Positions 3,478 through 28,470 of a stretch of 32,000 nt of DNA are shown here, one piece after another. Positions within the stretch are counted from its first letter, which is position 1; each line of letters opens with the position of its first letter. The stretch is from Bacillota bacterium (GTDB lineage: Bacteria > Bacillota > Clostridia > Acetivibrionales > DSM-1351), in assembly GCA_023433945.1 (NCBI GenBank), contig JAEYTP010000088.1, positions 842 through 32,841 of the forward strand, written 5' to 3'. The notes under the pieces are model-generated. The model saw only the letters and a list, made by a program, of their open reading frames with translations, was not told the origin of the DNA and ran no database searches. The translations under genes and the position numbers were made by a program.

Positions 3478-3743
3478 CTACTACCCAGTCTACAGATAAA
3501 ACTGCTGACTAGCAAGCACATATAACTACTACCCAGCCTACAGACATAAAAGCTGACCAGCCTACAGACATAAAAGCTGACCAGCCTACAGACATAACAG
3601 CTGACCAGCCTACAGACATAACAGCTGACCAGCCTACAGACATAACAGCTGACCAGCCTACAGACATAAAAGCTGACCAGCGTACAGATATAACAGCTGA
3701 CCAGCGTACAGATATACCAGCTGATCAGCCTATAGATATAATT
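3478..3743. repeat. Tandem array, 24-bp unit gctgaccagcctacagacataa[a/c]a, about 11 copies
   Basis: Central copies are identical or differ by 1 nt; both flanks are degenerate. The array ends 1 nt from the stop codon (3745-3747, minus strand) of the OYE gene. Confidence 0.95.
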
Positions 3744-3744
3744 G

Positions 3745-4845
3745 TTACTTAGTGTAATCGACACAATCAAGGTCCGTTTTATGTCTCTCAGCTACCGCGG
3801 GGCAGTTGTGGGGCATGAAGGGACTCCAGAAACATATTTTACAATCTCTACACTTAACGTAAGGAGTATCCAGCATTACTGCTAATGCCCAATTTGGGTC
3901 TGCCAATAGAGCTCTTGCAGAATCAATAGTATCTGTAAGACCTTGTTCTATAAGCATTTTAGCAGTTTCAGGCTTAAGTATACCATTTACAACAGATACG
4001 GGTACTGCTCCACTAATATGTTCATACATCTGAATACCAAACCATGCTATCTTGCTATATGGTTGACCTTCAGGATAATCAATTTCATCAGGACCAATTC
4101 CACTAGAAACCTGAAGGTAATCTACTCCTGCTGCTATGTATTGATCTGCAATTGCCCAGGCTTCTTCGAGGGTTGGCTCAGCGCCACTGGTTCTGGCTGA
4201 AATAATAAATTCTACTCCGCAGGCTTTGCGAATATCACGTATGATTTCACAGCCAAATCGAGTCCTGTTTTCAAGACTACCTCCATACTCATCTGTACGG
4301 AGATTAACCTTTGCACTTGAAAATTCATTTATCAGGTATCCATGGCAGGCATGCAATTGGACTCCATCATAACCAGCCCTTTTGGCACGAATGGCAGCTT
4401 TAACAAACTGTTCCCGGATTGTCGCAATTTCTTCAAGAGTAAGAGCCTCAGTTTGCTTGTCATTCCATATTACAACGGAGGGGCCCTTTGGCGTACCGCA
4501 ATCTGGGTGAGTACTATATCCACCGTGGTGGATTTGAACCAGTACAACAGCATTATGCTTATGACATGCTTCAGTAATAGCAATATGGCCGGCAATCTGG
4601 CTGTCCTCCCATAGTCCCAACTGTGAAGGTGCAAGTCTTCCAGTAGGGGTAACACAGGTTGCCTCTACTACAATAAGTCCAGTGCCTCCTTTTGCCCTGT
4701 CCTCATAGTGACGGGCGAAACGGTCTGTAGGTATTCCACTGGTATCAGTCCAGCCGAATTTAACAGTAGGAGCATATGTAATTCTATTTTTTACAATTTT
4801 TGATCCTATTTTTATAGGTGTTGAGATTTTATTCATTTTCTCCAC
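3745..4845 (-). CDS. Old Yellow Enzyme family NADH:flavin oxidoreductase (FMN TIM barrel) with a C-terminal Cys cluster
   Basis: 366 aa with HACHGYLINEFSS active-site region. The C-terminal CRDCKICFWSPFMPHNC (C-x2-C-x2-C-x9-C) resembles the 4Fe-4S motif of enoate/2,4-dienoyl-CoA reductases. SD ggaggg before the ATG. Confidence 0.85.
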   Translation of the reverse strand: MEKMNKISTPIKIGSKIVKNRITYAPTVKFGWTDTSGIPTDRFARHYEDRAKGGTGLIVVEATCVTPTGRLAPSQLGLWEDSQIAGHIAITEACHKHNAVVLVQIHHGGYSTHPDCGTPKGPSVVIWNDKQTEALTLEEIATIREQFVKAAIRAKRAGYDGVQLHACHGYLINEFSSAKVNLRTDEYGGSLENRTRFGCEIIRDIRKACGVEFIISARTSGAEPTLEEAWAIADQYIAAGVDYLQVSSGIGPDEIDYPEGQPYSKIAWFGIQMYEHISGAVPVSVVNGILKPETAKMLIEQGLTDTIDSARALLADPNWALAVMLDTPYVKCRDCKICFWSPFMPHNCPAVAERHKTDLDCVDYTK

Positions 4846-4855
4846 TCCCTCCTGT

Positions 4856-4998
4856 AGGGTATATTATTGCATTTTGGTATAAAGAGTAAGAGATTTTGGC
4901 ATCTACCATTAGGGTATATTATTGCATTTTGGTATAAAGAGTAAGAGATTTTGGTATCTACCATTAGGGTATATTATTGCTTTTAGGTAAATGGGTAT
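4856..4998. repeat. Tandem array, 55-bp unit, about 2.6 copies
   Basis: agggtatattattgcattttggtataaagagtaagagattttgg[c/t]atctaccatt starts at 4856, 4911 and 4966 (third copy diverges). It lies between the TetR stop and the OYE RBS. Confidence 0.9.
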
Positions 4999-5031
4999 GA
5001 GTATTTTTCATTTAAAATACCCGTATTTTTT

Positions 5032-5652: not shown

Positions 5653-5655
5653 GAT

Positions 5656-5850
5656 GTACTCCTTAAGTAGAACTATAAATATATTTAAAAGTACTGTCTA
5701 TGTATATATAATAGTACTGACTATGTAAATTATAAAAGTACTATCTATGTATATTAAAAAGTACTATCTAAGTATATTATAAAAGTTCTGTCATGTATAT
5801 TATATTAGTACTTCTATTAAATTATAGTAGTACTTCGCATGTAAAACCAA
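5656..5850. repeat. Tandem array, about 23-bp unit containing (a)aaagtact, about 8 copies
   Basis: gtact/gttct anchors at 5656, 5691, 5714, 5738, 5761, 5785, 5808 and 5830 (spacing 22-24 bp after the first). The array starts within a few nt of the TetR start codon and RBS. Confidence 0.8.
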
Positions 5851-5972
5851 TATAAATATTACGGTTATTCTATGCGTCAGTTTATAAAGCACCATGGTAA
5901 GTGACTACGGTCAATGGGATTCATTGAATAGTATACTACTGCAAACTAAAAGAAACAAGTAGTTAGAACTCC

Positions 5973-6738: not shown

Positions 6739-9700
6739 CTACCTATATATATCCAATGTTGCTTCGCCACCATATCTCGTTAGAACGTATATGTTTGAAC
6801 CTATGTATTCGATATTCCATTCCTTTGACGGGCCCGCTAATTTGATGCCTTGTGGTGCATATATTTTTAGCTGTTGCAATCCCTTATCCAGAATATCTAT
6901 TGAAAGTATATCATCGCTGTTGGATATTTCAACAGGAAGATTGACGCGCATTATATGCATATTATCTGTCTTACCAGTACCAGTGGATATACTAATGGGT
7001 TTATTTACACCAAAGTAAAGAGCATCCTTTGACTTTTGATAAATATCTGCATCAGTAGTAAACGATGCCCCCTTATATTTATCCGCTAATTCAAGCTTTA
7101 AACCAAGAGTATTATTGAATATGTTGTTGTTATCCTTCGGAGCATTCTGTTCAACAGATACGTGTAACTTACCATCAGATACTGTACTATTGGCATTGAT
7201 AGTGTTATCTAGAACAGCCATCATTGTCATAGCATATTGTGTCTCAGTCATAAAATTATAGTCCCATTTATTTCTTAAAGAGTCTATTACAGAGGCGCTT
7301 GATTCAGCAGACTTTGGATTTTTGTACATATTATACTCAATATGGAGATATACACTTACGGGCATATCCCACCTATATATGCTGTTCATCAAATCGTCAT
7401 AACCCTTGCGATTTGTGGCGGTAAGATTAAGTGAAGCATTGAAGAGCAACATAGAAGTTGTATTTAAACCATCAGCAAGATAGTATGGTCTCGCCCAAGT
7501 ATATTCTGTACCTCCGGATGGATCTACAGGGGAGTTAGCTGGAGTGAAGCCTGAGTTCCAACGAAGTCCCGAATCATATTCATTGAGAATTGTCTGTAAA
7601 CCGTCTTGAAAGTTAATCTTCCAAGTATGTTGGTTTGTCCCAAGACCATCCCAACCCAGTCCATATGATTGGAAGGCTGCCTTATGTAATGCTAGTTCTG
7701 TTTTTTCGTCGGGGGAGTCCTTATACTTATGAGTAAAAACATGAGGTTCGATACTTATTCCGTTTTCATTACAGAACTCAATTGCTGATAGAAGTTCATC
7801 CCTATATGGAAAATACTTGGAGTCAATAGGGACTGCAAAGGTGCCAAACTCCAATCTTCCTGTTATTAGGTCTTTTTTGCCATCCTTATTTATGTCAGCA
7901 AAAAAAGGAACAACGTTATTACCATATTTAAAGTGTTTGTTGCCTCTATCATTGCTATATATATTGTCAATATAACCTGAATAAGAGAAATGCCCCTTGT
8001 TATTTGTATATTTGACTATGTAACCATCAGCTGTACCAACGTATAATTCAGGATAACCATCATTATTATCATCAAATAGCTTAGGAGCTGAGTTTTTTCC
8101 TTCGTGAATATCCTTACCCGACGAATTCTTAAGCTTTGAGAGCTTGCCAAACTTGATTTTACCTGAAACGAGTGAACCTTTAGTGTAATATATATTCCCA
8201 CTCATAGTACCTACTACAAGCTCAATTGAACCATCGGAGTTATAGTCTGCTATCTCAGGTGCCGAGAGCTTTTCACCAACAGGTGCATTTACCAATATCC
8301 CCATTGGTTTATAGGTATTATTTTTTAAGCCCTTAAACCAATATATATTTCCGTCCAAGCACCCTGAAACTAAATCTGCTACTTTGTCATTGTCTATATC
8401 ATACAGTATAGGGGCTGAATATGTATTTACTTTTAATTCATGCCCATTGGCATCTTTAAGAGGTCCCACTTTTTTTAGTTGCCATCCGTCCTTCAGGCTT
8501 ATGCATTGATAATAATAGAATTTTCCGTCCGAGCTTCCACATATTAAGTCTAAAAGACCGTCATTATTAAAGTCAGTAGCGTAGGGATATGCTCTATGTG
8601 AAACATTCATCTCATTGAAATACGTGTCCTGGATAGGAGATTTAGCAAGATTAAGCCAGCTATCGTTAACAATAGCATGCTCTCCCGGCGCATACAGAGA
8701 ATTATAATTATCATGGGATATGACAATACCGGAACCTGTTGTACTGTTTAATTGGTATCCAACTGATTCATATCTGTCAGACCATTCGTACATTCCCCTA
8801 GACAACGAAAAGGATGGTATTAGATTATATTTTTTTGTCAGTGAAAACCACTTTTCCATTGACTGTTCCTTAACAGCTGAAAGTACTTCAAAATGGTTCT
8901 GGTACGCCATAGCAGGTCTTCCATACGGGCCCAAAACCTTTTTTAGTGAATAGCCATACTTCTGCTTTGAAGCAAAAACCAAGCCCTCATCAAGTAAAAG
9001 AGAGGTTGCACTGGATACGGTATTATTAAAATAAAGTTGCTCAGAGCTTTCTTTCTTCATATCAAACCCCGATATGTACCAATTATTGGGCAGAAGAGCA
9101 CTGGTAAAGAACACAAAGCCCTTACCGTATTTATTAACAGAATAAAGTGAGGTATTGCCGTCGCTTGCAATTGTTGTCGCAGTATCAGGTATTATACCCA
9201 TACCATAAGATTTTGCTTTTAACTCCTTAAATGCAGAAAATTGCCGATAGCTTATCTCAAAATCTTTTATTACGTTCTGTATATTCTGCAAATCGCCGCT
9301 AACAGTAGGATAATTTATTTTATCTGGAAATGAGGGTACTTCTTTAAAATCTTTAGCACCCACTACTTTCTTAGGAAGCCAATTATAGAGGCTGTTCTCA
9401 AGAAATATAGTGCCTCCATCATATATAAATGACATTAATTGGTATTTTAGTTGCAGAGAATTCTTAGAATTCACAATAGAAGGGTCAGGATATATAAAAT
9501 CATATGAGGTTAGATCCAAGGATGTTTGTCCATCCTTAATCTCTATTTCCTCAACAGAAGCATTAGCTACAAGCGTTTGTTTTAAAAATTGATATGTACT
9601 TGTCCACGAGTTACTTGAACCATTATGTAGTATACAAACCCTTATAACATCACTACTATTTTGTTGGTTTTGGGCACCAACCGGTTGTATAGACGGTGAT

Positions 9701-9756
9701 ATCAGCTGAAGGCAGATACTTATTATTAGTAATGTGAAAATTATCTTTTTAAGCAT
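6739..9756 (-). CDS. Secreted 1005-aa protein with central FG-GAP/VCBS-type repeats; flanking domains unassigned
   Basis: Signal peptide MLKKIIFTLLIISICLQLISPSIQPVGA. Five DxDxDG-like repeats: FNNDGLLDLICG, DIDNDKVADLVSG, DYNSDGSIELVVG, DDNNDGYPELYVG, DINKDGKKDLITG. Confidence 0.85.
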   Translation of the reverse strand: MLKKIIFTLLIISICLQLISPSIQPVGAQNQQNSSDVIRVCILHNGSSNSWTSTYQFLKQTLVANASVEEIEIKDGQTSLDLTSYDFIYPDPSIVNSKNSLQLKYQLMSFIYDGGTIFLENSLYNWLPKKVVGAKDFKEVPSFPDKINYPTVSGDLQNIQNVIKDFEISYRQFSAFKELKAKSYGMGIIPDTATTIASDGNTSLYSVNKYGKGFVFFTSALLPNNWYISGFDMKKESSEQLYFNNTVSSATSLLLDEGLVFASKQKYGYSLKKVLGPYGRPAMAYQNHFEVLSAVKEQSMEKWFSLTKKYNLIPSFSLSRGMYEWSDRYESVGYQLNSTTGSGIVISHDNYNSLYAPGEHAIVNDSWLNLAKSPIQDTYFNEMNVSHRAYPYATDFNNDGLLDLICGSSDGKFYYYQCISLKDGWQLKKVGPLKDANGHELKVNTYSAPILYDIDNDKVADLVSGCLDGNIYWFKGLKNNTYKPMGILVNAPVGEKLSAPEIADYNSDGSIELVVGTMSGNIYYTKGSLVSGKIKFGKLSKLKNSSGKDIHEGKNSAPKLFDDNNDGYPELYVGTADGYIVKYTNNKGHFSYSGYIDNIYSNDRGNKHFKYGNNVVPFFADINKDGKKDLITGRLEFGTFAVPIDSKYFPYRDELLSAIEFCNENGISIEPHVFTHKYKDSPDEKTELALHKAAFQSYGLGWDGLGTNQHTWKINFQDGLQTILNEYDSGLRWNSGFTPANSPVDPSGGTEYTWARPYYLADGLNTTSMLLFNASLNLTATNRKGYDDLMNSIYRWDMPVSVYLHIEYNMYKNPKSAESSASVIDSLRNKWDYNFMTETQYAMTMMAVLDNTINANSTVSDGKLHVSVEQNAPKDNNNIFNNTLGLKLELADKYKGASFTTDADIYQKSKDALYFGVNKPISISTGTGKTDNMHIMRVNLPVEISNSDDILSIDILDKGLQQLKIYAPQGIKLAGPSKEWNIEYIGSNIYVLTRYGGEATLDIYR

Positions 9757-9927
9757 TTTTATACATGACTCCTAAAAATTGATGATGTATGAGAATTATA
9801 TCAATTTTTGTATGTTCGTTCAATACTATTTAAGGTCAGCTAGATGAACCAAGTGCTTACAAAACGTATCCAATTGACAAATTATTTAAAGCTATTTAGC
9901 ACTATTAAAAATAAATGCCTCAAAAAG

Positions 9928-9967
9928 AATGTCGCCCGGTTTGCTTCTTTTAAGCCCGAGCGACATT
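9928..9967 (-). terminator. Rho-independent terminator of the MCP gene
   Basis: aatgtcgcccgg (9928-9939) pairs with cccgagcgacatt (9955-9967) with one mismatch. On the minus strand the stem is followed by cttttt. Confidence 0.6.
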
Positions 9968-10020
9968 ACATTTAAAGTTTTGAATTCTTAAATTATAAGG
10001 TAACAATAAATAAACCAAGT

Positions 10021-10079
10021 TTTTAACTTAGAAAGCAGATATTGAACTTAGAAACTAAACTTTGAACTTGGATACTAAA
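10021..10079. repeat. Short tandem array, about 20-bp unit (t)tgaacttagaaa-like, 3 copies plus degenerate flanks
   Basis: ttttaacttagaaagcagata / ttgaacttagaaactaaac / tttgaacttggatactaaa. The last units contain the MCP stop codon (10055-10057) and final codons. Confidence 0.55.
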
Positions 10080-11797
10080 TTGCTTAAAATCTCAGCACTT
10101 TCCTTTGTCGAGTTAACACTTTCAAGGATTTCACTTGACATATTTGCTATACTTAAGGATTTAGATGCAATTTCTGAGGAACCCTGTGCACTTTCATTAG
10201 TTGAAGCAGTGACATCACTGATTGCTTTGGCAACACTTGCAATGGAAGCTAGAAGCTCCTCAGATGTTGAACTGAAATCAGTGACAAGATTACTTATACT
10301 ATTTGCACCATCGTTATAATCATTAGATGCACGCAGCATGATTTTGTAATCAGAATCAACATTGGTGTGCATGAATTCTAACAGTTTATTAGAATTTGTT
10401 GTTAAATTATCAACAGCACTGGTTACTGTTTTAGTGGTAGATTGAATTTGAGTAGCAGTTTTGCTTGAGTCTTCCGCCAACTTCCTGATTTCGTCAGCTA
10501 CCACTGCAAAGCCCTTACCCGCTTCTCCTGCCCTTGCAGCTTCTATTGCGGCATTTAATGCCAATAGGTTTGTCTGAGAAGTGATTTGAAGTATTGCATC
10601 GGCTAGTACATGAATTTGCTCAACAGATTTTGATTCATTGATTGCGGAACTAAGGTCTTTGCTTACAATGTCAAACAAATGCTTTGAGTTTTCACGCGAC
10701 TGAGTAAAAGTAATTTTTAAATCGCTTGCTTTCTTACTTATTTCCGCTGCAGATTCAGCACCCTCTTGCGATTTCTGAGCAATACTTTCAACCGCTTGTT
10801 CAATTTCAGTTGAAGCAGCGTTTATTTCTTGTGAAGATGCAGCAGTTTCTTCTAAACCGGCAGACATTTCCTCGGTGGTTGCAGATATTTCTTCTATTTG
10901 ACTATCCAGTTGGATAATATTTGAGTTTACATCTGCAATAGCGGCTTTTAGTATATCGGACTGCTGAGATACGCTTGAAATAATATTTCTTACTTCTTTA
11001 CGTGCTTTTGCTTCTGCTTGTACAATTTGGGCCAATTCATCCTTCTGTGACAAAAATCTCTCATAATAGCTATCATATTTTAAGTCGCAGTCAGCTGTCT
11101 TATTAATAAGATTAACAGCGTCTTTGGTGCGCTTTCTAAGGTTAGTTATAGTAATTAACCCAAATAGCGTTGAAATTACTAAGCTTAAGATAAATGCAAT
11201 AATAGAATTCATTCTTTCAAAAGAAACCGATGTTTCATATTCCTTCATAAGGTCTTTATTATGTACTTCTATAATCTCTTCCATCTGGTTGATACATTCT
11301 CTGGTATCTGAGAACTGTTTTTCATATTCTGAAAAGTTAGATATCTTATAACTTTTGTTATCAACTAATGCTATCCAGCTATTAAAATAATCTTGATATT
11401 GATTAACAAGTTCAGTCATAGTAAGGTTTGATTTCTCGTGTCTGTAACTACTTAAGCTATCTTGTCCGGATGCTATTAGTTCTTTAATGCGTTCTAATTG
11501 ATCTGCTACTTGATCTCTATTGGTAACATATTCATTGTAAAAATTGGTAGCCTGTTCCTGTGAAATTTGGCTATTTTGCATATTCATTGAAAAAAGCATA
11601 GCCTGATATAAATCCCTATCTGAATTAAGTAGGTAACTATTTAATTGGTAGGAATAATTATCAAATTCATCCATAATAGAGTTTTTGATATTACTTGACG
11701 TTTGAGATAATACACTGCCTGCAAACATAAATAAAAGAGGAATTAAAAATACAATCAGGATTTTGGTGCTCACTTTGATGTTGTTGAACTTTAGCAT
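10055..11797 (-). CDS. Methyl-accepting chemotaxis protein
   Basis: 580 aa with an N-terminal TM, a periplasmic-type sensor region, a second TM and HAMP. Signalling hairpin [34 protein letters not shown]. Confidence 0.92.
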
Positions 11798-12087
11798 ATA
11801 AACATCCTTTCCTAATAAATGTAATATAATGTGAAAAATTGTTAATTAGATAAATATAATTATCTGATATACCGTCATATAAATCAATATAAACTTTTAT
11901 AAAATACTTATGATGACTATTGTGAAGTCGATCTTTATATACCTATTAGGACAAGTAAATAAAACGTGATTTTTGCAAATTATTAAAAATAATATATCTT
12001 ACTGTAAGAATTACTATTATTTGGTTGAATAAATAGTAATCTAATTTTATAATAAATATAAATTATGTTAATGAACAGGAGATATCT

Positions 12088-13284
12088 ATGGACATAATGA
12101 GGGGCAAGAAAATTGCACTGATTGTAGTATGTATGTTATTTATTACAACCATTATTCTATCACCTAGTTTATCAATCAATGCTGCCACATCTGTTGCTAA
12201 ACCAAGTATTGCTGCAACTGCGAAGATTGGTACTGGAAGCTTTTATGGCAATAATGATTATTATTCAAAGACATATGATAAATATGCTTTAACGGTATCA
12301 AATGCTGTAAAAAATGCTACTTATAGCTTTACCTCAAGTAACACAAAAATACTAGCAGTAAAGGCTAGCGGTACAAAGGTATATTTGACAGGGTTAGCAG
12401 CTGGAACTGCAACAATCACATGTAATCAGAAATTAAATGGCAAAACAACAAAAGTTGGAACTTGCAAGGTTACGGTAATGAATTCAACCCTTTATGATAC
12501 TTACGTACCTGAATTACCTATTGGTACAAAGAGCCTGGCATTAGCAGAATATAACTACAGAAATAACGATGCAGTTTATACATATGTTTCTGATAGCAAG
12601 AATTTTTCAATTACTGAATCCTTCAGTACATTTGATGATATGCAATTCATTAAGCAAACATATATAGCAAAGGCAGCTGGCACATACAATATAACAATTA
12701 AAGAGACCTTTAATAAAAATACCAGAGTAGTCGGAAAGCTACAGTTTGTTGTAAAAAATCCCTCAGTGGATAAAGATTACTCTTTAGAGATGGGAACAGA
12801 AACAAATGCATATGAAATAATGAATAATGAAAAAGTCGGGGTTAACTACCTATTTGTATCTGAGGACAGTAGTATAGTTGAAGTAGCAATGAAGGGTTTG
12901 AATACTAACTTGCTTACTAAGAAGGTTGGAACTACAAAAATCAATGTTTATGAAAATACAAAGACTGCGGATGCGAGCAAATTAATAGGAACCTGTTCAA
13001 TTATTGTACAAGAAGTAGAATTAGATGAGCTTTGCTATGACTTCAGTGAAACAGAGGTATATTTAAATGGTGACCCAATAACAGTTGAGGTTTCTAAAAG
13101 TCAGGAAAATGCACCTGGTACAATAGAGGTTATCTCCTCTAATCCAAAGGTAGTTAAAGTCAGCACTATTGAAGATGGAGTATTTGAAATCACACCAGTA
13201 AGTCCTGGTACAGTTACAATTACTATTAAGTGCGGAGATATAACTGAAACTGAGACAATTACGGTTATAGACGAAGATGATTAA
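12088..13284 (+). CDS. Secreted protein with bacterial Ig-like (Big_2-type) domains
   Basis: Signal peptide ending SINAATS. Big_2-like segments include ILAVKASGTKVYLTGLAAGTATITC and VFEITPVSPGTVTITIKCGD. SD aggag. Confidence 0.8.
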   Translation: MDIMRGKKIALIVVCMLFITTIILSPSLSINAATSVAKPSIAATAKIGTGSFYGNNDYYSKTYDKYALTVSNAVKNATYSFTSSNTKILAVKASGTKVYLTGLAAGTATITCNQKLNGKTTKVGTCKVTVMNSTLYDTYVPELPIGTKSLALAEYNYRNNDAVYTYVSDSKNFSITESFSTFDDMQFIKQTYIAKAAGTYNITIKETFNKNTRVVGKLQFVVKNPSVDKDYSLEMGTETNAYEIMNNEKVGVNYLFVSEDSSIVEVAMKGLNTNLLTKKVGTTKINVYENTKTADASKLIGTCSIIVQEVELDELCYDFSETEVYLNGDPITVEVSKSQENAPGTIEVISSNPKVVKVSTIEDGVFEITPVSPGTVTITIKCGDITETETITVIDEDD

Positions 13285-15946: not shown

Positions 15947-15956
15947 TTTAAAAAAA

Positions 15957-16164: not shown

Positions 16165-16221
16165 TTGACATGTTGGTCTATAAGTTATAGACTATTAGCA
16201 TAAAGTCTATAACTTATAGAC
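16165..16221 (+). promoter_or_regulatory. blaI-blaR1 promoter with two 17-bp dyad operators
   Basis: TTGACA at 16165-16170. GTCTATAAGTTATAGAC (16176-16192) and GTCTATAACTTATAGAC (16205-16221) each have perfect 8-bp arms, with centres 29 bp apart. A further tctataga palindrome lies near 16249. Confidence 0.75.
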
Positions 16222-16333
16222 TAGTAAAATATTACTATGGCAAATCCTCTATAGACTGGTAAGTTATTTGGTGTGTAGGTCAGTAAACTTCTTTGTCAAA
16301 TACTAAGTTTATAAGATGGATAGGGAGGCATAT

Positions 16334-16693
16334 ATGAGTCATAAGCTTACAGAGAGCGAACAAAGGTTTACCGATATAATATGGAAGCACCAGCCCATTG
16401 GTTCGGGTGAGCTAGTGAAAATATGTGAGAGGGAAATGGGATGGAAAAAGTCCACAACATATACAGTCCTGAAAAATTTATGCCAAAAGGGTATCTTAAT
16501 AAATGAGAATGCTATAGTATCATCTTTGGTTACTAAGGATGAATACTATTCAAATCAAAGCATACGTTTTGTTGAGGACACTTTTGGAGGCTCTTTGCCA
16601 AAATTTTTGACAGCCTTTATCAATAAAAATAAACTGAGTAAGCATCAGGCAGAAGAGTTGAAGAAGCTTATTGATGAGCACAAGGAGGTGTAG
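16334..16693 (+). CDS. blaI: BlaI/MecI/CopY family winged-helix transcriptional repressor
   Basis: MSHKLTESEQRFTDIIWKHQPIGSGELVKICE...KKSTTYTVLKNLCQKGIL. SD gggagg 5 nt before ATG 16334. The track ORF starts 18 nt earlier. Confidence 0.9.
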   Translation: MSHKLTESEQRFTDIIWKHQPIGSGELVKICEREMGWKKSTTYTVLKNLCQKGILINENAIVSSLVTKDEYYSNQSIRFVEDTFGGSLPKFLTAFINKNKLSKHQAEELKKLIDEHKEV

Positions 16694-16695
16694 TG

Positions 16696-18323
16696 ATGAG
16701 TGAGCTATTTATTTCTGTGCTAAATATGAGCCTGACAGCAAGTTATGTAATTTTATTTGTTATACTTTGTAGACTATTACTGAAAAGGTGTCCCAAAATC
16801 ATCTCTTATGTCTTATGGAGTGTTGTGGCATTTCGTCTGATAATTCCTTTTTCGTTTGAAAGCATGTACAGCCTTCTGCCTCAAAAAATAAATACTTCAC
16901 CAATATCACACGACATCATGTATCAACAAAGCCCGCAGTTTAATAGCGGGATAGGTATAGTTGATTCCATTATAAGTAATTCACTGCCTGCTCCATCTAT
17001 TGGGGATAGTGTAAACCCATTGCAGATTTATTTAGAAATAGGCGCCTTTATATGGATAATAGGTGCAGTAGTATTACTTATCTACAGCCTTGTTTCTATA
17101 ATAACGCTAAAAAAACAGCTAAAAAGTGCACAGCCGATAGAGAAAAATACATATGAGGCAAAAGATTTGAAAACACCCTTTGTTTTAGGAATAATAATAC
17201 CAAAGATATACTTGCCGACTGGACTTAGCACACAAGAAAAGAGCTATATTTTACTGCATGAACAGACCCATATCAATAGAAAGGATCACATAGTTAAGGT
17301 TTTTCTTTCTTAATATTGTGTATCCATTGGTTTAATCCTCTTGTATGGATTGCATTTATGTTAATGAGCATGGATATGGAGTTGTCCTGTGATGAAAGGG
17401 TAATAAAAGAAGCGGGTAATGATACAAAAAAGCCCTATGCCACTACATTATTATCACTTTCCAGTGGAAGACATATTTTAAACGGGAGCCCTCTTGCATT
17501 TGGGGAGGGAAGTATTAAAGGGAGAATCAAAAACATATTAGATTATAAGAGACCCAAGTTTTGGGTTGTTACAACTGTGATAATTGCAGTTATTGCTGTC
17601 TCTATTGGACTTGTAGCTAACCCCCGCAGCACTACACCTTCAATGCTATGGGCAAAGTCCTTGCAACTAAACGATGTTGAAAGTATAGAACTGATTGTAC
17701 AGCCTTCCGATGAACAGGAACAGTACAAAAAATTTGAAGCCGAAGAGATTACTGCAATTATCAAGCTAATCAATAGTAGCAACGGAACACTTGTTCAATA
17801 TCCAGAGAGCATTTCAGGGAGAACTCAGACTATATTTATTACTTTAAAAAATGGTGAAGTTCATCATTTTATAAATAGTGGCAACACCTATTTAATTATT
17901 GATGGTGATACTTATATGGCAAAGCGGGACTGGCTAAATAGTTGGAATTATGAAGGCAATAGTGATGTGCCAACTGACTTTTGGGAAAGAGCAGGCATTA
18001 AGGCTACATCCTACCAGCTTATTTGGTTAAAGAAAGGGGAAGTGCAGCGCACTATAGCTCCCCTCAACAAGGACGATAGTAAGCTTGCACAGGAAATTAT
18101 AATGAACTACATGATTAGGTCATCAGCATGGCCTGGGGTTGATATTAATTCCTTGGAGAATTGTTACCTCGTGAGAACAATCTATTCTGACGGTACTACA
18201 TCTGAAAATTACGCATACCTACATGAAGGTAAGACTGTAATGCAGCATGGAAAAGATGGGCATTATACTATCGTTGATACTGGTCTGTATGAAAGATTGG
18301 TACAATTGATTGATGTAAATTAA
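16696..18323 (+). pseudogene. blaR1: BlaR1/MecR1-like M56 sensor-metalloprotease, split by a 1-nt frameshift into ORFs 16693-17313 and 17316-18323
   Basis: HEQTH (HExxH) lies at the end of ORF1, and the family motif HWFNPLVW is at the start of ORF2 in the other frame. Adding one T to the T5 run at 17300-17304 gives a continuous KVFSFLILCIHWFNPLVW. Confidence 0.8.
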
Positions 18324-18438: not shown

Positions 18439-18550
18439 ATAGATATGATTTATAGGTCTATTGTTCCAGCTTCTCAATATTTGTGTACAAATATATTATG
18501 ACATGCTGTTGACATATTTAACCCTGTATAATGGAGTTATACTATTAAGG

Positions 18551-18630
18551 ACAAGATTTATATACTAAACAAATGCTTATATGTTAAAACAAATGCTTAT
18601 ATACTAGAACAAATGTTTATGTATTAAAGC
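18551..18630. repeat. Tandem array, about 21-bp unit aaacaaatgcttatat, about 3.5 copies
   Basis: acaagatttatatact / aaacaaatgcttatatgtta / aaacaaatgcttatatactag / aacaaatgtttatgtattaaagc. It lies between a TGTATAAT extended -10 (18525-18532) and the radical SAM RBS. Confidence 0.65.
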
Positions 18631-18672
18631 AGTTACCCATATATACAGCTAAAAGCATTAGGAGGTAGAGCG

Positions 18673-19606: not shown

Positions 19607-19613
19607 CTTGGCA

Positions 19614-21321: not shown

Positions 21322-22698
21322 TTACTCAGCGGGTTCAAGTATTACATTAGCTTTTCTAAGAATACTACGAACCTCATTTACATCAACCATAGAAGGAGCA
21401 ATATTGTATTTCACTGCAAGTGCAGCCCCAACGCCAGCGGCTTCACCTATAGCCATGCAAGTTGGCATAACCCTTGCAGAGCTCATTACTACAGCATCCA
21501 AAGAAGCACACCTTCCGCTCAACATGAGGTTATCTATATCTACACTTACTGTACATCCATACGGAATACCATACGGTTTTATTCTTTTAACTATTGTACC
21601 TGCACCGTTGCCTTCGTGGATATCTATTATGTAGGATCCAAGTGCAACAGTATCTTCTGGAACTTCGCCCACCATTATTTGCGCCTCAGTCAACTCACAT
21701 AAACCTGCGAATCGGCGAGTTTCACGCACACCTAGGGAAGGATATATTTGAGTAATGTAGCAGTTCTCAAAACCTGGAACGTATTTTTTAAGAGTATCAA
21801 CTAACTTGGGTATCTGCAAGTGACCTTCAATCTCTGCGCGAGTCAAATCCAGAACATCACTACCATTAATACCAAGATGCCTTGTTGTATTTATATGTAC
21901 TTCCCCAGGTATTAAGCTTTTAATATATATAAGAGTATCTCTGTCAACAGGCAGCTCTCCTTTTTCCTTTAATTCGAGGAAAAGCTTACGCATGCCTACC
22001 ATAACGTGATGGTGTGGATTTGAACGGAGGAAATCCGCATTGTACTTTTCAAAGTCGCATTCTATGGTACTACATAAACGCATTTGTTCAGGATCACTTG
22101 CGATAAAATCTATTGTCTTGTCGGTATCTACGTTGCCTAAAGTAAACATAAGAGTTGGTGGCTGCAGTGCACCAGTATCTTTTTGGCCCATATTATAGGT
22201 AGCACCAGCTAAGTAAGCCATGTCACCGTCACCGCTTGCATCTATAAAGACTTTAGCATGAACCTCTATATAATAACCCTTACCAAAAAGTGTAACTGAC
22301 CTGATGCTACCATTATCTACATTTGTATTGATTACTTCGGTGTTCAAAAGTATATCAATACCTGCTGTAAGGCACATTTCAAATGCAACAACCTTAAAAA
22401 TTTCATGGTCGTAAAGTGTTACAGAGTTGTGCATGGGGCATGTATAATGATCGGTACAGGCATTGCGCTTTTTGAGTTCATCTACAAGTTCCTGAGCAAT
22501 ACCAGCGGTTACAGGCTTGCCATCTTTGTCGAGATATCCCAACAATGGTAAACCTATCGTTAAATTACCACCAAGATATCCGTTTTTTTCTACCATAAGC
22601 ACTTTTGCGCCATTTCTACTTGCTGCAATTGCTGCAGGAATTCCGCCTGGTCCACCGCCAATGACGACCACATCATAATTTTTTTGGAGGGTTTTCAT
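21322..22698 (-). CDS. FAD-dependent oxidoreductase (FAD_oxidored/PF12831-like), paralog B
   Basis: VVVIGGGPGGIPAAIAASRNGAKVLMVEKNGYLGGN dinucleotide fold, C-terminal RVMPTCMAIGEAAGVGAALA, 458 aa, SD aaggag. Confidence 0.85.
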   Translation of the reverse strand: MKTLQKNYDVVVIGGGPGGIPAAIAASRNGAKVLMVEKNGYLGGNLTIGLPLLGYLDKDGKPVTAGIAQELVDELKKRNACTDHYTCPMHNSVTLYDHEIFKVVAFEMCLTAGIDILLNTEVINTNVDNGSIRSVTLFGKGYYIEVHAKVFIDASGDGDMAYLAGATYNMGQKDTGALQPPTLMFTLGNVDTDKTIDFIASDPEQMRLCSTIECDFEKYNADFLRSNPHHHVMVGMRKLFLELKEKGELPVDRDTLIYIKSLIPGEVHINTTRHLGINGSDVLDLTRAEIEGHLQIPKLVDTLKKYVPGFENCYITQIYPSLGVRETRRFAGLCELTEAQIMVGEVPEDTVALGSYIIDIHEGNGAGTIVKRIKPYGIPYGCTVSVDIDNLMLSGRCASLDAVVMSSARVMPTCMAIGEAAGVGAALAVKYNIAPSMVDVNEVRSILRKANVILEPAE

Positions 22699-22746
22699 AG
22701 TTTTGTCTCCTTTGATAATATAATTTTTTTATTAATTAGTAGCTAA

Positions 22747-22900
22747 CTGCACCTCTACTAACATAGCTTTTTATAAACAAGCCTTTTATGGCTGCACCTT
22801 TACTAATACAGTTTTATAAACTAGTCTTTTATAGCTGCACCTTTACTAATATAGCTTTTTATAAAACTAGTCCTTGATGACTGCACCTTGATTGATAAGG
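22747..22900. repeat. Tandem array, 43-46-bp unit, 3 copies plus a partial copy inside the upstream CDS
   Basis: Units start with ctgcacc at 22747, 22792, 22835 and 22881. The third unit contains the real stop codon (22867-22869) of paralog A. Confidence 0.85.
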
Positions 22901-24240
22901 GTATTACGAAGATTAACAATATCTACATGCTCGGGGAGAACACCGCTTTTTTGCGCTATCGCAGCTGCAGTGCCAGCGGCCTGACCCATTGCAATGCATG
23001 CAGGCATAACACGATAGCTCGCTGCAGCCTCTGAGGAACCACATATGCTACGCCCTGCAACAAGCATATTATCGCAGTTCTCAGGAATCAGGCAACGATA
23101 TGGTATAGTGTAGTACTTGTCAACACAGGTAAATGTGACCCCACCACCTGTTGAGTTGTGAACATCAATGGCATATCCGAATGTACATATCGCATCATCA
23201 AAATGCTTACGAGATAGTATATCTTCCGCTGTAAGCTCATATTTGCCCACAATGTGTCTTGTTTCGCGAACACCAAGTGCAGTGGCTACTTGAATGAGTT
23301 GTATATTCTCGCAACCAGGGAGATATTTTTTCATGAAAGCAACAACTTCCTGTACTTGACGTCTACCTTCAATAAGAGCTTTGGTTATATCAGAAGTTTT
23401 TGTAGCATCAATATGTGCAATACGAGTGGTATTAATTTTCCACCGCCCAGAGACATTTTGTTCATAGTTTCCTAATTCATTGCGGTCAATTGTCCAGTCT
23501 CCGTTACGCTTTGCTTCGACTACATATTGAGCGAAACAATTAGCGGTGTGATTATCTAGGTTGGCTTTGTTGGCTTCTAACTCACCTAAGTATTTCTCGC
23601 GGTCGATATTTCCAACTTCGAAGAAAAGGGTAGTAGGTTGCATAACACCAGTATCCTTTTGACCAAGCCAGGTAGGTACACCCGCCAGATATGCAACATC
23701 AGCATCGCCAGTACAATCTATGTATACCCTTGCACGAATTGCTGCAATACCTTCTTTCATATGAACTATAACATGCTCTATCTTTCCATCATTAGTAATA
23801 CAATCGGTAACTTGAACGTTGTAAAGTATTTGTGCACCTGATTCTAGAACCATTTCTTCCATTACGACTGCAAGAACCTCCGATTGATATGGAGTAACAT
23901 GTCTATGGCTTGCCATATAATATGAGGAGTAAGAGGTCATGCCTTCAATCTTGGATGGATGAATAGCACCCCCTCGAGCTTCGGTCCGAATACATAACTC
24001 ATCAAATATACCCTTGACAAGCTGTTCCTGTGCATCGTTATCATAGCAGGTCATAAATGGTCCAACGAGACCTGTTGTAGCCATACCTCCTAACATGCTT
24101 AAACGCTCAATCAGTAATGTTTTTGCTCCGTTTCGAGCTGCTGCTACAGCTGCTCCGAAGCCAGCAGTACCTCCACCAATAACAAGGACTTCTGTTTCTA
24201 TTACATTTTTAATGATTTTTTTATATTGAATCTCGCTCAC
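22867..24240 (-). CDS. FAD-dependent oxidoreductase (FAD_oxidored/PF12831-like), paralog A
   Basis: VLVIGGGTAGFGAAVAAARNGAKTLLIERLSMLGGM, C-terminal RVMPACIAMGQAAGTAAAIA, 457 aa. GTG start with SD aggagg 6 nt upstream. Confidence 0.85.
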   Translation of the reverse strand: MSEIQYKKIIKNVIETEVLVIGGGTAGFGAAVAAARNGAKTLLIERLSMLGGMATTGLVGPFMTCYDNDAQEQLVKGIFDELCIRTEARGGAIHPSKIEGMTSYSSYYMASHRHVTPYQSEVLAVVMEEMVLESGAQILYNVQVTDCITNDGKIEHVIVHMKEGIAAIRARVYIDCTGDADVAYLAGVPTWLGQKDTGVMQPTTLFFEVGNIDREKYLGELEANKANLDNHTANCFAQYVVEAKRNGDWTIDRNELGNYEQNVSGRWKINTTRIAHIDATKTSDITKALIEGRRQVQEVVAFMKKYLPGCENIQLIQVATALGVRETRHIVGKYELTAEDILSRKHFDDAICTFGYAIDVHNSTGGGVTFTCVDKYYTIPYRCLIPENCDNMLVAGRSICGSSEAAASYRVMPACIAMGQAAGTAAAIAQKSGVLPEHVDIVNLRNTLINQGAVIKD

Positions 24241-24749: not shown

Positions 24750-26369
24750 ATGTATAAGGCTATTATTGTTGATGATGAAGACCTAGTGCGTCAAGGACTT
24801 AAGAAACACTTTGATTGGAGTGCTTACAATATTCAAATAGTTGCCGATTTACCAGATGGAGAAAAGGCATTAAACTTTGTAAAGGAAAACCATATTGATT
24901 TAGTGCTTACCGATGTCCTTATGCCGTATATGGATGGAATAACATTAGCCAAAAATCTACGGGAGCTCTATCCAGATATAAAGATAATTTTCGTCAGTGG
25001 GCATGACGATATAGCATTTCTAAAGAATGCACTTAAGGTTGATGCTATAGATTATATCCTTAAATCAATAGACTTAGATGAGCTCAAAGAAACCGTCAGT
25101 CGAGTGGTCAACATTATGGATATGGAGAATAGAAGCAAAAAAAACCTTGCTGATATGGAAAACCTCCTAAATGAAAGCTTTCCTCTTTTGCAAGAACGTT
25201 TTTTTATAACAATGATTCGTGATGACGTAGAAAATCCAGAAATATTGAAGGAACGAATAGCTTTTTTGAATTTACCTCTGTATGACGAAATGCACTACTG
25301 CGTACTGGTTATTCAAGTACAAAGTATATACAGCACATTTTATACTCTATCAGAACGTGAACGACAACTTTTATCTTTGCAAATTCAAGACGAATGCAGG
25401 AATGTAGGTAAGCTTTATGGCGATACAATTTGTTTTGAAAATAAGCAGGGTGAATACATAATGATACTTTCCTTATTAGAGGATGAGTATGAAGATACTA
25501 TCCTTGAGGTCTCCGAGAAATTAAACAAACGACTTAATGTGAGTATGAATCTTAAAGTAGCGATTGGTATTAGTGAAAGATTTAAAGGACTTGAAAATAT
25601 AAAGATATCCTACGATAATGCTTCAAATGCTATAAGTAAACGCTACTTACTCGATAGCGAACTAGCTATCTCCATTGATAAATACGAAATGGACGAAAGC
25701 CTTAAAGAATTTAAGGAAAGAGCCGAAAAGAGTTTGCAGGAGTGCTTGAGCCATGGTAGTGCCGAGCAGGTTATAGAGGTACTTAATGAGCTTTTTAGTA
25801 TAATTAAGGAGAAGTTTCATAGTGATGAAGAGCAAAATTTGCTGATTTACTTACTACTCCTTCCAACACGTATAGTAACTGATGTAATGATAAACAAAAA
25901 AAGTGACTACTCCAATCAACGTATGATCTTAGAGAAGTTTTTATGCTGTTCGGATTATGAAGAACAGTGTCTTATGATTCAAAAGCTTTATACTGAGGTA
26001 GCTTCCCTCATGAGAAATATGAGTAAAACATATTCTCACACTATAATTAATCAAGTCCGTAAAACGATTGAGGAACATTTTAAGGAGCAGATATCTATAA
26101 CTACGTTAGCAAAAGATGTCTATTTAACACCGACATATTTATGCGTATTATTTAAACAAGTTACTGGTACTACTATAAATGATTACTTAACTAACACAAG
26201 GCTTGAAAAGGCAAAGAAGCTCTTATCAGACCCGTACATAAAATTATATGATGTATGTTATGAAGTGGGATACCTTTCTCCTAGCTATTTTTCACGCTTG
26301 TTTAAGAAATATACAGGACTCTCACCTAGTGAATATAGGAATATTGCAATTTCATCAGCAGAGAAATAG
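24750..26369 (+). CDS. Two-component response regulator with AraC-type HTH output (YesN-like)
   Basis: Receiver domain MYKAIIVDDE...LVLTDVLMPYMDG and C-terminal AraC HTH GYLSPSYFSRLFKKYTGLSPSEYR, 539 aa, SD aaggagg. Confidence 0.92.
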   Translation: MYKAIIVDDEDLVRQGLKKHFDWSAYNIQIVADLPDGEKALNFVKENHIDLVLTDVLMPYMDGITLAKNLRELYPDIKIIFVSGHDDIAFLKNALKVDAIDYILKSIDLDELKETVSRVVNIMDMENRSKKNLADMENLLNESFPLLQERFFITMIRDDVENPEILKERIAFLNLPLYDEMHYCVLVIQVQSIYSTFYTLSERERQLLSLQIQDECRNVGKLYGDTICFENKQGEYIMILSLLEDEYEDTILEVSEKLNKRLNVSMNLKVAIGISERFKGLENIKISYDNASNAISKRYLLDSELAISIDKYEMDESLKEFKERAEKSLQECLSHGSAEQVIEVLNELFSIIKEKFHSDEEQNLLIYLLLLPTRIVTDVMINKKSDYSNQRMILEKFLCCSDYEEQCLMIQKLYTEVASLMRNMSKTYSHTIINQVRKTIEEHFKEQISITTLAKDVYLTPTYLCVLFKQVTGTTINDYLTNTRLEKAKKLLSDPYIKLYDVCYEVGYLSPSYFSRLFKKYTGLSPSEYRNIAISSAEK

Positions 26370-26467
26370 TATTTTACTGAAAAATTTATTATACTGTTCA
26401 GAGAATTTATTATACTGTTAAGAAAAAGTTATTTACTGCTCAGATAGTTATATTTACAGAAACAGGT
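26369..26467. repeat. Tandem array, about 21-bp unit atttattatactgtt-like, about 5 degenerate copies
   Basis: atttattatactgttcagaga / atttattatactgttaagaaaa / agttatttactgctcagat / agttatatttacagaaacagg. It fills the spacer from the RR stop to the HK RBS. Confidence 0.6.
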
Positions 26468-26483
26468 GGGAAAGGAAATAGTT

Positions 26484-28295
26484 ATGAATAAAGTTAACTT
26501 AAAAGATAGACTTTTTAAAAATATTCTTTATAGTGATAATATGCGTTTATCAAAAAGAGCAATTGCTCTTTTTGCTTTTACAGTATTTATACCGCTCACT
26601 CTTATCGTAATTATGTATTCCAATCACTCATCAAATATTATTGAAAATGAGCTGTCAAATAATATGAGATTAGCGGTTAACCAGATCAAAAGCAACCTGG
26701 ATTACCGGTTTGAACAAATATCTGAAAGCGCCCTTTCTATTCTTAGTACGGCTTATCCGTATATTAGAAGTGGAAGCACGGATGTTCAAACACAGCTAGA
26801 GGAATATGCCGAACTTAAATCTCTGGTTTCAGCTTACGAAGGAAAACATATGATTAGTAAAGTTAGACTATATGTACCTTCCGGTAAAATATATGCAAAT
26901 CAACAGGATACATTCTATTCTTTGCCTGAGCTTACGATGGAAAACAGTGAGAATCTAAAGCGGGGAGTAGTTTGGTTGAAGACCTATGGAGCGCGTATAT
27001 ATGATGGAACAGGATTAATTAATGTTATATCTTGCCGAATGACAATTTCGAGTAAAAAAAATTATGATGAAATAGCTAGCGTACTACAATTAGATATAGA
27101 AGAAACCAAGCTTAGTAAAATATTTTCTGCAGGCATAAGCAGTGATGAGGAGATTTACTTGGTAGATTCAACAGGGTATATAATTTCTCACCCCGATTCA
27201 AGCTTGATTGGTAAAGAGGGCCTTACACCAACCGAATTAAAAGCTGTGCTGGAAAATGAGACAGGACATCTGAGTGGAAAGATGAGTAATAATTCTGATC
27301 TAGTGGCATTTTCAAAGTTGAGTGTACCAAACTGGTATTTAATTATGAGATTGCCAGCTACTACAGTATACGGAACGGATATTTATTCATTTGATGTGAT
27401 GCGCGCTGTGCTGATTTTAGCCGTTATCTTAGTTTTTGTTGTCTCACTAATAATCATATATTCTAGTATAGTTGAAAATACTGTGAAACGAATAAATAAT
27501 GCTATTATGGTACTGAAAAATGAGGGAATTGATCAAGCTGATAATGTTGCCACACTAAACGACAAAAATAATAAGTCTCTTGCATTATTAGAGAATAATG
27601 CAAACCAGTTAGTTATTACTATAAAAAAATTGATGGAAGAGTCATATGAAGCCAAATTAAAAGCCCGTGATTTTCAGTTGAAAGCTCTACAGGCACAAAT
27701 AAATCCTCATTTTCTATACAATACTCTTGATGCTATAAAATGGATGATATTGGAGGATTATAAACAAGATAGTATATGGATGATAAATGCTTTTTCAAGG
27801 TATTTCCGTCTAAGCTTAAGCAAAGGAAGGGATGTTGTTACCCTTAGAGATGAATTAGAATTAATTGAGTCGTATATTGGAATTATGCAAAAAAGGTTTA
27901 GTAATATATCAACCATAGAAATAAATATTGATGAAGATCTGAAAAATTGCCTTATTCCCAAGCTATCACTGCAGCCACTTGTTGAGAATGCACTCAATCA
28001 TGGAATTCTTCATAGCCAAAACAATGATGGTAGCCTTACTATAGCTGCAAGAGAAGAAGAGGAGAGGTTGATTATTGTCATCAAGGATAATGGTAATGGG
28101 ATGAGTCAACAGCAGCTTGACAACATTCTTGAGCCAAGTAATAGCAGTAACACCAAGGGCTATGGCCTTGGAAATGTAGACGAAAGACTTAAGCTGTTTG
28201 GAGGAGAAGACTGTGGGCTTAGTATAAGTTCTGAAATTAATGTGGGTACAACTGTTACCATTTCATTACCTATAAAATATATGCAACACGAATAA
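26484..28295 (+). CDS. Sensor histidine kinase (YesM-like; double-TM sensor, HAMP, His_kinase, HATPase_c)
   Basis: H-box QINPHFLYNTLD and ATPase motifs LVENALNHG, DNGNGM, GYGLGNV. ATG 26484 is preferred over GTG 26466 because of SD gggaaagga spacing. Confidence 0.9.
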   Translation: MNKVNLKDRLFKNILYSDNMRLSKRAIALFAFTVFIPLTLIVIMYSNHSSNIIENELSNNMRLAVNQIKSNLDYRFEQISESALSILSTAYPYIRSGSTDVQTQLEEYAELKSLVSAYEGKHMISKVRLYVPSGKIYANQQDTFYSLPELTMENSENLKRGVVWLKTYGARIYDGTGLINVISCRMTISSKKNYDEIASVLQLDIEETKLSKIFSAGISSDEEIYLVDSTGYIISHPDSSLIGKEGLTPTELKAVLENETGHLSGKMSNNSDLVAFSKLSVPNWYLIMRLPATTVYGTDIYSFDVMRAVLILAVILVFVVSLIIIYSSIVENTVKRINNAIMVLKNEGIDQADNVATLNDKNNKSLALLENNANQLVITIKKLMEESYEAKLKARDFQLKALQAQINPHFLYNTLDAIKWMILEDYKQDSIWMINAFSRYFRLSLSKGRDVVTLRDELELIESYIGIMQKRFSNISTIEINIDEDLKNCLIPKLSLQPLVENALNHGILHSQNNDGSLTIAAREEEERLIIVIKDNGNGMSQQQLDNILEPSNSSNTKGYGLGNVDERLKLFGGEDCGLSISSEINVGTTVTISLPIKYMQHE

Positions 28296-28301
28296 TTTTA
28301 T

Positions 28302-28470
28302 CTACATAATATCTACAAAAGACTCCACATAAGGATGAACATAACTCTACATAAGATACTACAAAAACTCAACATAAGATATTACAAAAAACTCAGCATA
28401 AGATACTATAAAAGACTCCACATAAGACTGTACATAAAACTCTACATAAGATTCCTGCATAAGATGAATG
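28302..28470. repeat. Tandem array, 22-24-bp unit c[tac][ag]cataagata ctacaaaaact, 7 copies
   Basis: Units start at 28302, 28325, 28347, 28370, 28394, 28418 and 28442. The first unit starts 7 nt after the HK stop codon. There is an internal sub-period of about 12 bp. Confidence 0.85.

Follow-up and report, generated by a model that had tools for sequence, protein, structure and literature searches.

A 32,000-nucleotide stretch of the chromosome of a member of the Clostridia (Bacillota), hereafter called the window, carries nine arrays of imperfect tandem repeats, each built from a unit of its own and lying between genes, in the leader of a gene or across the end of one. These arrays are real and mutually independent, derive from local sequence, sit at gene boundaries, vary in copy number and have been turned over between species. 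We consider it probable (about 70%) that they are ordinary bacterial minisatellites, of the variable-number tandem repeat (VNTR) type, that are unusually frequent in this Bacillota/Clostridia lineage, arise by local duplication and are kept where they do no harm. The window is part of a 459-kb MEGAHIT contig from European Nucleotide Archive (ENA) sample ERZ27268766. It was compared with a second strain (loci L001 and L084, from a MEGAHIT assembly of ENA sample ERZ27268920), with Logan contigs of a third read set, SRR13243547, that carry the same region, and with the closest relative among one-per-species genomes, the metagenome-assembled genome (MAG) 'Bacillota bacterium OH_HBrB_169' (L003, hereafter the sister species). 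The catalase protein of the sister species is 99% identical to that of the window; at the DNA level, however, identity reaches only 85-91%, with partial synteny. All of the assemblies compared are short-read assemblies. For estimates of density, the window was joined to fetched flanks (17.5 kb) to give a contiguous source region of 49,533 bp, which was set against a background of 76 loci (1.09 Mb) from other Clostridia, obtained in the same search that gave the sister species. Non-coding DNA was taken as everything outside open reading frames (ORFs) of at least 120 aa.

A reading made from the sequence alone (the sequence-only reading) had listed nine arrays in the 32 kb. Tandem Repeats Finder (TRF) recovered all nine, against a mean of 0.28 and a maximum of 1 in block-wise dinucleotide shuffles that preserve local composition; together, the TRF arrays make up 3.8% of the window. 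The same reading had given array 8 five copies; the array is real (21 bp x 3.0), but five copies are reached only when very decayed flanks are counted. Its description of homogeneous centres and decayed edges was borne out by array 1, whose successive units have identities to the consensus of 0.83, 0.58, 0.96, 0.96, 1, 1, 1, 0.96, 0.92, 0.88 and 0.67. Three copies in array 5 were called as intrinsic terminators, and the whole amounts to 3-4 tandem terminator-like hairpins with T-tracts. The flanks add three arrays, two of them intergenic (20 bp x 2 and 19 bp x 3.7) and one in frame within a GH95 glycoside hydrolase gene (24 bp x 9).

Table. The nine tandem-repeat arrays of the window and two associated features (RBS, ribosome-binding site; coordinates are window positions)
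Feature	Position	Strand	Unit and copies	Setting	TRF call
Array 1	3475-3743	-	24-bp unit CCAGCCTACAGACATAACAGCTGA, ~11 copies, 48-bp superstructure	Between two convergent genes, 1-3 nt from the stop codon of the OYE-type gene (3745-4845, minus strand)	3475-3741, 24/48 bp, 8.7 good copies (11 with decayed edge units included), score 341
Array 2	4855-4998	-	55-bp unit x 2.6	Fills the tetR-OYE intercistronic spacer, up to the OYE RBS (GGAGG, 4846-4853)	4855-4989, 55 bp x 2.5, 96% matches, score 249
Array 3	5656-5850	-	23-24-bp unit TATATTATAAAAGTACTGTCTATG, 7-8 copies	tetR leader, between operator and RBS	5680-5834, 23-24 bp x 6.7
Array 4	10021-10079	-	20-bp unit x 2 plus one decayed copy (10021-10041)	Covers the MCP stop codon (10055-10057) and the last ~8 MCP codons	10042-10079, 20 bp x 1.9, score 62; weakest of the nine
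Array 5	15954-16155	+	Terminator-like hairpin plus T-tract (GAGTCAAGAGGGACGGTTCCTTTTTGACTC ATTTATTTTT), hairpin core GTCAAGAGGGACGGTTCC, 4 direct copies and 1 inverted	Starts ~8-11 nt past the catalase stop codon (15944-15946)	15958-16099, 47/24-bp hairpin unit; the inverted copy extends to 16155
Array 6	18537-18643	+	20-bp unit TTATATATTAAAACAAATGC x 3.6	Radical-SAM gene leader, between a promoter-like block conserved with the sister species (~18490-18535) and the RBS AGGAGG (18660-18665)	Called by TRF
Array 7	22747-22900	-	43-bp unit x 3.2	Between two paralogous FAD-oxidoreductase genes, overlapping the stop codon of the upstream one (22867-22869)	22747-22889
Array 8	26369-26467	+	21-bp unit AAAATTTATTATACTGTTCAG x 3 plus decayed flanks	Fills the spacer from the response-regulator stop codon (26367-26369; distance 0-11 nt) to the histidine-kinase RBS/start	26381-26444, score 84
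Array 9	28301-28470	+	24-bp unit, 48-bp superstructure, x 6-7	Begins 5 nt past the stop codon of the histidine-kinase gene (28293-28295), stops short of a long hairpin (~28504-28549)	28301-28465, 24/48 bp x 6
tetR operator-type palindrome	5901-5913	-	GTGACTACGGTCA	Distal to array 3
Terminator-like hairpin (read from the sequence)	~9928-9967			Downstream of array 4

The units are unrelated to each other. An all-against-all comparison of the 12 unit consensuses of the source region, covering both strands and all rotations, gave no pair out of 66 with a score above z=3 relative to shuffles. A blastn-short search with each unit through the source region, the relatives and the background (~1.2 Mb) found no match outside the unit's own array, with the exception of the 43-bp unit of array 7, whose one outside match was its ortholog in the sister species. 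Thus, a single repeat family for all arrays is ruled out, and these results support independent local amplifications rather than one family of repetitive extragenic palindromic (REP) sequences or miniature inverted-repeat transposable elements (MITEs), as the sequence-only reading had proposed from the absence of a shared consensus.

The arrays are also placed non-randomly, as had been noticed from the sequence. Six of the 11 non-coding arrays overlap a stop codon or lie at most 11 nt from one (Fisher combined P=0.002, with uniform placement in the spacer as the null). Arrays 2, 3 and 6 reach to just upstream of an RBS, 18-29 nt short of a start codon. Most arrays therefore occupy positions that would be expected to be transcribed but untranslated. 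Several of them grade into the functional sequence at the boundary itself. The proximal edge unit of array 3 merges into the tetR RBS (GTACTCCTTAAGTA, compared with the unit GTACTATCTAAGTA), array 4 takes in the last MCP codons and the stop, and the last, decayed copy in array 7 is formed by the upstream FAD-oxidoreductase gene's own 3' end with its stop codon. This indicates that these three arrays arose by duplication of local DNA and, consequently, that the 'decayed edges' are in part original copies still under functional constraint.

The tetR leader provides a further indication of where an array has grown. In the tetR orthologs of loci L088 and L093-L097, a palindrome of the GACTAnAGTC type lies 30-80 nt upstream of the start codon, with no array present; in the window, the corresponding operator is displaced ~250 nt by array 3. 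In the sister species, the operator palindrome likewise lies upstream of the array in its tetR leader. Since the operator is on the far side of array 3, the array was inserted or has expanded within the leader, between the operator/promoter region and the tetR start codon. A metagenome scan with the TetR protein returned only orthologs of at most 59% identity, which located the operator and were of no use for VNTR comparison. The conserved palindrome, which is present in up to three tandem copies in L097, is likely the site recognized by this TetR subfamily, which is paired with an OYE flavin oxidoreductase.

Comparison of the two strains and of the two species shows that turnover is ongoing: copy numbers differ between strains, and between species arrays are absent or have been homogenised. 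The strains are 98.8% identical overall; 211 of the 245 mismatches fall in one tract, and elsewhere in the 35.6 kb the two hardly differ. Array 1 of the second strain (L084) is shorter by exactly 72 bp, or 3 units, and array 5 lacks one 24-bp unit (16054-16077) in L001. The variable core of the short array 1 allele, at 96 bp, is smaller than the assembler k of 141 and is spanned by single 141-mers, so that this allele has direct read support. Array 2 is identical in L001. Array 4, which lies inside the divergent tract, shows 4 substitutions. The low rate of substitution in the arrays (0.47%, as opposed to 0.98-1.26%) was considered as a sign of purifying selection and the idea rejected, because the strains are near-clonal and most mismatches lie in one tract; the same near-clonal background makes the whole-unit length changes more telling. 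The tract itself (~7700-12200, ~5% divergent between the strains) extends from the FG-GAP gene, of which it takes in the 3' part, across the MCP gene to the 5' part of a gene for a Big_2 protein, and looks like a homologous-recombination import affecting surface and sensory proteins. An exact-protein look-up with the cold-shock protein found only the two known strains; look-ups with the OYE protein and a permease, both called with GTG starts, gave no match, probably owing to wrong start codons.

Differences from the sister species are larger. In place of array 5 it has one unrelated terminator hairpin, and at the position of array 6 the sequence is single-copy, with both flanks conserved. At the site of array 3 the sister species does have an array, with another unit and copy number (24 bp x 10.3 followed by 26 bp x 2.6). 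At that of array 7 it has 2 units, not 3, and these are 95% identical to each other and 86-88% identical to the units of the window, which argues for homogenisation within species. The expansion and contraction that had been suggested from the sequence are thus seen at both time scales, in whole-unit changes of arrays 1 and 5 between strains and in the species-specific forms of arrays 3 and 7. Between the catalase terminator and blaI, where array 5 lies in the window, the sister species may encode a 24-aa hydrophobic peptide on the minus strand.

We then asked how the density of arrays compares with that in other Clostridia. The source region has 1.55 intergenic arrays per kb of non-coding DNA (10 in 6.44 kb), compared with 0.20 in the background and 0.28 in its low-GC loci, an excess of 5.6-7.8x (Poisson probability 1e-6 with the full background as reference and 2e-5 with the low-GC loci). 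Arrays occupy 20% of its non-coding DNA, as opposed to 1.7% and 2.4%, respectively. The excess is greater for long arrays: those of at least 100 bp number 1.6 per 10 kb in the source region and 0.10 in the background (16x), and the median array length is ~140 bp compared with 46 bp. It is confined to non-coding DNA, since coding DNA has 0.46 arrays per 10 kb in the source region and 0.41 in the background. The density is 0.78 per kb of non-coding DNA in the sister species and lower in the more distant relatives L004 and L005. Most arrays of the source region also share a base period of 19-24 bp, often with a 43-48 bp dimer superstructure (9-10 of 12 arrays, compared with 25% of background arrays; P ~4e-4).

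The claim that such a density is unusual for a bacterial chromosome is thus weaker than first stated: the excess, measured over 49.5 kb, is one of degree. A survey of 5,374 prokaryotic genomes with the DetectRepeats program found that intergenic DNA close to start and stop codons is enriched in tandem repeats, which on average cover 2.1% of a genome (PMC12418385, Nucleic Acids Research 2025), and a few background loci have single arrays of a comparable kind, among them tandem hairpin units that follow the catalase genes of these loci. Intergenic arrays that are large and single, with 47-75-bp units, were seen at L077 11959-12236, L052 4954-5145 and 17359-17649, and L049 17554-17774. Several arrays at these loci, which come from unrelated Clostridia MAGs, hold terminator-like hairpins, and tandem duplication of terminators thus recurs outside this lineage.

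In kind, this is the familiar VNTR phenomenon. Bacterial minisatellites, known from the loci used for multiple-locus VNTR analysis (MLVA) and from databases such as those of Vergnaud and colleagues and VNTRDB (PMC1781188), are tandem units of ~10-100 bp, mostly intergenic, with a unit of its own at each locus, with whole-unit differences between strains such as those of arrays 1 and 5, and with homogeneous centres and degenerate edges. Head-to-tail units beyond chance expectation, whole-unit strain variation and locus-specific units of local origin are all found here. Relative to the repeat arrays of the Clostridia background, the window arrays differ in being far denser, in their narrow range of unit lengths (19-24 bp or about double) and in their systematic placement at stop codons and RBSs. 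The mycobacterial interspersed repetitive units (MIRUs) described by Supply et al. are VNTRs that reportedly belong to one dispersed consensus family with ~40 loci and contain small coupling ORFs. Arrays 2, 7 and 8 resemble them in filling intercistronic spacers of operons, in contact with the upstream stop and the downstream start, but here each array has a unique unit and stop codons interrupt nearly all frames; no MIRU-type coupling ORF was found in these three arrays, which have stops in all six frames. The DetectRepeats survey likewise found repeats to be more common upstream of starts and downstream of stops than inside genes; it proposes such repeats as a source of regulatory variability that has received too little attention. 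Its average of 2.1% was obtained with a sensitive detector, whereas here the stringent TRF alone places 3.8% of the window, and 20% of non-coding DNA, in arrays; this lineage is not described there (PMC12418385). According to the mention in PMC2884548 of work by Elhai et al., the small dispersed repeats of cyanobacteria, the short tandemly repeated repetitive (STRR) sequences among them, are dispersed, possibly mobile families with sequence common to several loci; the arrays resemble these, as described there, in their ~20-bp tandem non-coding units of variable copy number and differ in that the units are locus-specific. The units are contiguous, without the spacers of a CRISPR, and no cas domains were found among the proteins of the window. 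At 19-55 bp, they are also above the 1-9 bp of the simple sequence repeats in contingency loci, which lie in a promoter or ORF and switch it on or off through frameshifts or changes in spacer length (phase variation).

Several other explanations were weighed. That the arrays are artefacts of short-read metagenome assembly has next to no credibility in our view, although every available assembly is of this type and repeats are known to be collapsed or mis-joined in such assemblies, a limitation noted in PMC12418385. Apart from the length variants of arrays 1 and 5 and the substitutions in array 4, the arrays are base-for-base identical in the two MEGAHIT assemblies, which come from different samples, and the third run agrees in its contig ends. 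The ends of its Logan contigs SRR13243547_45867 and _126249 fall within arrays 1, 2 and 5 (window ~3562, ~4925 and ~15987), which is the expected effect of a real repeat on a small-k assembly. Moreover, De Bruijn contigs hold only k-mers present in the reads, the variant units of these imperfect arrays follow one another in a fixed order, and the independently assembled GenBank MAG of the sister species holds orthologous arrays. These results confirm that the arrays are not assembly artefacts. It is highly improbable, too, that arrays 1 and 9, with their 24-bp units, are what remains of protein-coding repeats or extend such repeats cryptically. Their periods are multiples of 3, and the in-frame array of the GH95 gene, (QVDSEIAK)n, located ~5.2 kb left of the window start (L083 4563-4777), shows that such repeats can code here. 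It lies near the end of the GH95_C domain, where the Pfam match stops at position 84 of the 94 in the hidden Markov model (HMM) and the final strand resumes after the repeat; such a duplication thus also survives in coding DNA when its period is a multiple of 3. In array 1, one frame on each strand is open or nearly so, and the plus-strand frame encodes (QPTDITAD)n with a single stop; that stop, however, falls within the first units, and the frame has neither start codon nor RBS. Homology of this peptide to the GH95 repeat (QPDITIAR/QVDSEIAK) was judged too weak. Array 9 has one frame that stays open for 58 codons and is in phase with the stop of the histidine-kinase ORF, but the kinase HATPase_c domain is complete at the annotated stop, and we judge the open frame to be due to chance, as expected for a 24-bp unit. 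The arrays all have stops in most frames, and those other than 1 and 9 have stops in every frame. A 52-aa ORF called inside array 1 (L083 13277-13435) is probably spurious. Somewhat less remote, yet still very unlikely, is the possibility that some arrays, chiefly array 5, are clusters of a dispersed element of the MITE type or of the type of REPs and bacterial interspersed mosaic elements (BIMEs), with no other copy in the sampled DNA. The array 5 unit is a GC-richer imperfect palindrome at the 3' end of a gene, one copy is inverted as in the BIME clusters of enterobacteria (PMC2884548), the array replaces a non-homologous terminator of the sister species in a manner suggestive of insertion, and, like REP/BIME clusters, its hairpins could act as a terminator or stabilise mRNA. 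However, REPs are dispersed in high copy number, whereas array 5 has no second locus in ~1.2 Mb, nor has any other unit in the 49.5-kb source region, 49 kb of three related species and ~1.1 Mb of Clostridia DNA; a scan of the window gave no Rfam matches, and the other eight arrays are non-palindromic and derived from flanking sequence.

Two alternatives attribute more to the arrays themselves. They might be selected regulatory elements, either protein-binding arrays (operators, iterons or response-regulator boxes) or untranslated-region (UTR) modules that tune stability, termination or translation, with copy number as an evolvable tuning knob. Every array does lie in a regulatory position (leader, intercistronic spacer or 3' end), array 5 consists of tandem terminators, the units of array 3 hold AGTACT palindromes and a motif similar to one half of the tetR operator, both array 3 and array 7 are kept at the same loci in a species ~10% divergent, and the narrow 19-24 bp period could reflect a binding footprint. 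Nevertheless, we consider selected regulation unlikely. When sense-strand folds were compared with dinucleotide shuffles, array 5 was far more stable (z=-13), arrays 1 and 3, with their short palindromes (CAGCTG or AGTACT), were weakly better, and arrays 2, 4 and 6-9 gave z ~0. Since six of the nine arrays fold no better than shuffles, structured RNA, one of the general causes suggested by the sequence-only reading, is rejected as an explanation for the arrays as a class. The other suggestion, binding by proteins, found nothing in its favour: the true tetR operator appears to lie outside array 3 and distant orthologs function without an array, a hairpin separates array 9 from the promoter region of the next operon, and no arrays accompany the paralogous two-component locus to the left. 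Binding of the response regulator at array 9 was judged unlikely on the same two grounds. In addition, unit sequences are replaced in full from one species to the other, the sister species does without arrays 5 and 6, and the low substitution between near-clonal strains is uninformative. A promoter scan was uninformative, with as many matches as expected from shuffles, and the apparent TTGACA/TATAAT pair upstream of array 6 has a spacer of only 12 nt. The second alternative, which we regard as quite unlikely, is a duplication process or retention filter specific to this lineage that operates with a step of ~20-24 bp (about two helical turns, often as 43-48 bp dimers) at transcribed but untranslated boundaries. 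Nothing in the evidence tested here speaks for a lineage-specific duplication mechanism or for a functional array length.

We therefore return to ordinary minisatellites of local origin. Under this explanation, a local sequence of ~20-55 bp at a gene boundary would first be duplicated in tandem. The array would then grow, shrink and be homogenised, presumably through replication slippage and/or unequal recombination between copies. It would be retained where duplication is harmless, such as in the gaps between stop codon and terminator, in intercistronic spacers and between promoter or operator and RBS; filtering for such permissive sites may thus account for the placement. Arrays would abut a stop codon, RBS or terminator because the original gap was only a few nt long, and the copy at the boundary would look like a decayed edge because it is still selected for its original job. 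Several observations weigh against this explanation. Copy number is equal in both strains for seven of the nine arrays compared, so that instability is not demonstrable for all of them, and the differences that were seen come from short-read metagenome assemblies in which the long array 1 allele is not spanned by one k-mer. The estimate of density comes from 49.5 kb, of which 32 kb had been preselected for arrays; the 17.5 kb of unselected flanks contributed 2 non-coding arrays. Finally, a uniformly raised rate of slippage leaves unexplained both the shared 19-24 bp period and the lack of an excess in coding DNA.

The genes of the window are an ordinary chromosomal set of a saccharolytic Firmicute: ABC sugar permeases, a GFO/IDH oxidoreductase, the OYE-type flavin oxidoreductase with its TetR regulator, a cold-shock protein, an FG-GAP protein, an MCP, a catalase, BlaI/BlaR1, a radical-SAM enzyme, an SDR, several FAD-oxidoreductase paralogs and a two-component pair of the YesN/YesM type. 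A tRNA scan of the window found no tRNA genes. The BlaR1-type sensor gene (16693-18323) is split into two ORFs at ~17304, where one base has been lost (GGTTTTT-CTTTC). In strain L001 the site reads GGTTTTTGCTTTC and the gene is an intact 532-aa one; the split is thus either a recent pseudogene or an assembly error. Upstream of blaI, 16176-16262 holds 2-3 copies of the 17-bp palindrome GTCTATAAGTTATAGAC, probably an operator of the BlaI/MecI type and, as such, a repeat with a regulatory role that sets it apart from the minisatellites. In the sister species, the 3-kb FG-GAP gene is missing and there is a 1.6-kb insertion between blaR1 and the radical-SAM gene; these two differences and the possible 24-aa peptide were noted at L003 1739-1767, 11585-11660 and 13937-15568. 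At least five paralogous genes for PF12831 FAD-dependent oxidoreductases (window 21322-24240 and L086 13628-17794) surround three zinc alcohol dehydrogenase genes and a sugar ABC transporter, so that a single enzyme family is expanded locally to an unusual extent.

The more certain consequences are practical. Arrays 1, 2 and 5 fragment short-read assemblies, since small-k contigs of an independent assembly end inside them; the arrays also cause spurious calls of small ORFs, and they would be well suited to strain typing of this lineage in metagenomes. If a process with a ~20-24 bp step were at work, UTR and leader length would, in hundreds of genes, be a trait that evolves fast and varies among strains, and the remodelling of 3' ends, terminators and operator-RBS distances would far outpace point mutation. 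If the density seen here holds genome-wide, the clade would be a natural system in which to follow the origin and turnover of minisatellites in bacterial UTRs. It would also show how far the lengths of leaders, intercistronic spacers and 3' UTRs can drift without harm to expression, as in the tandem terminators downstream of the catalase gene and the operator pushed ~250 nt away from tetR.

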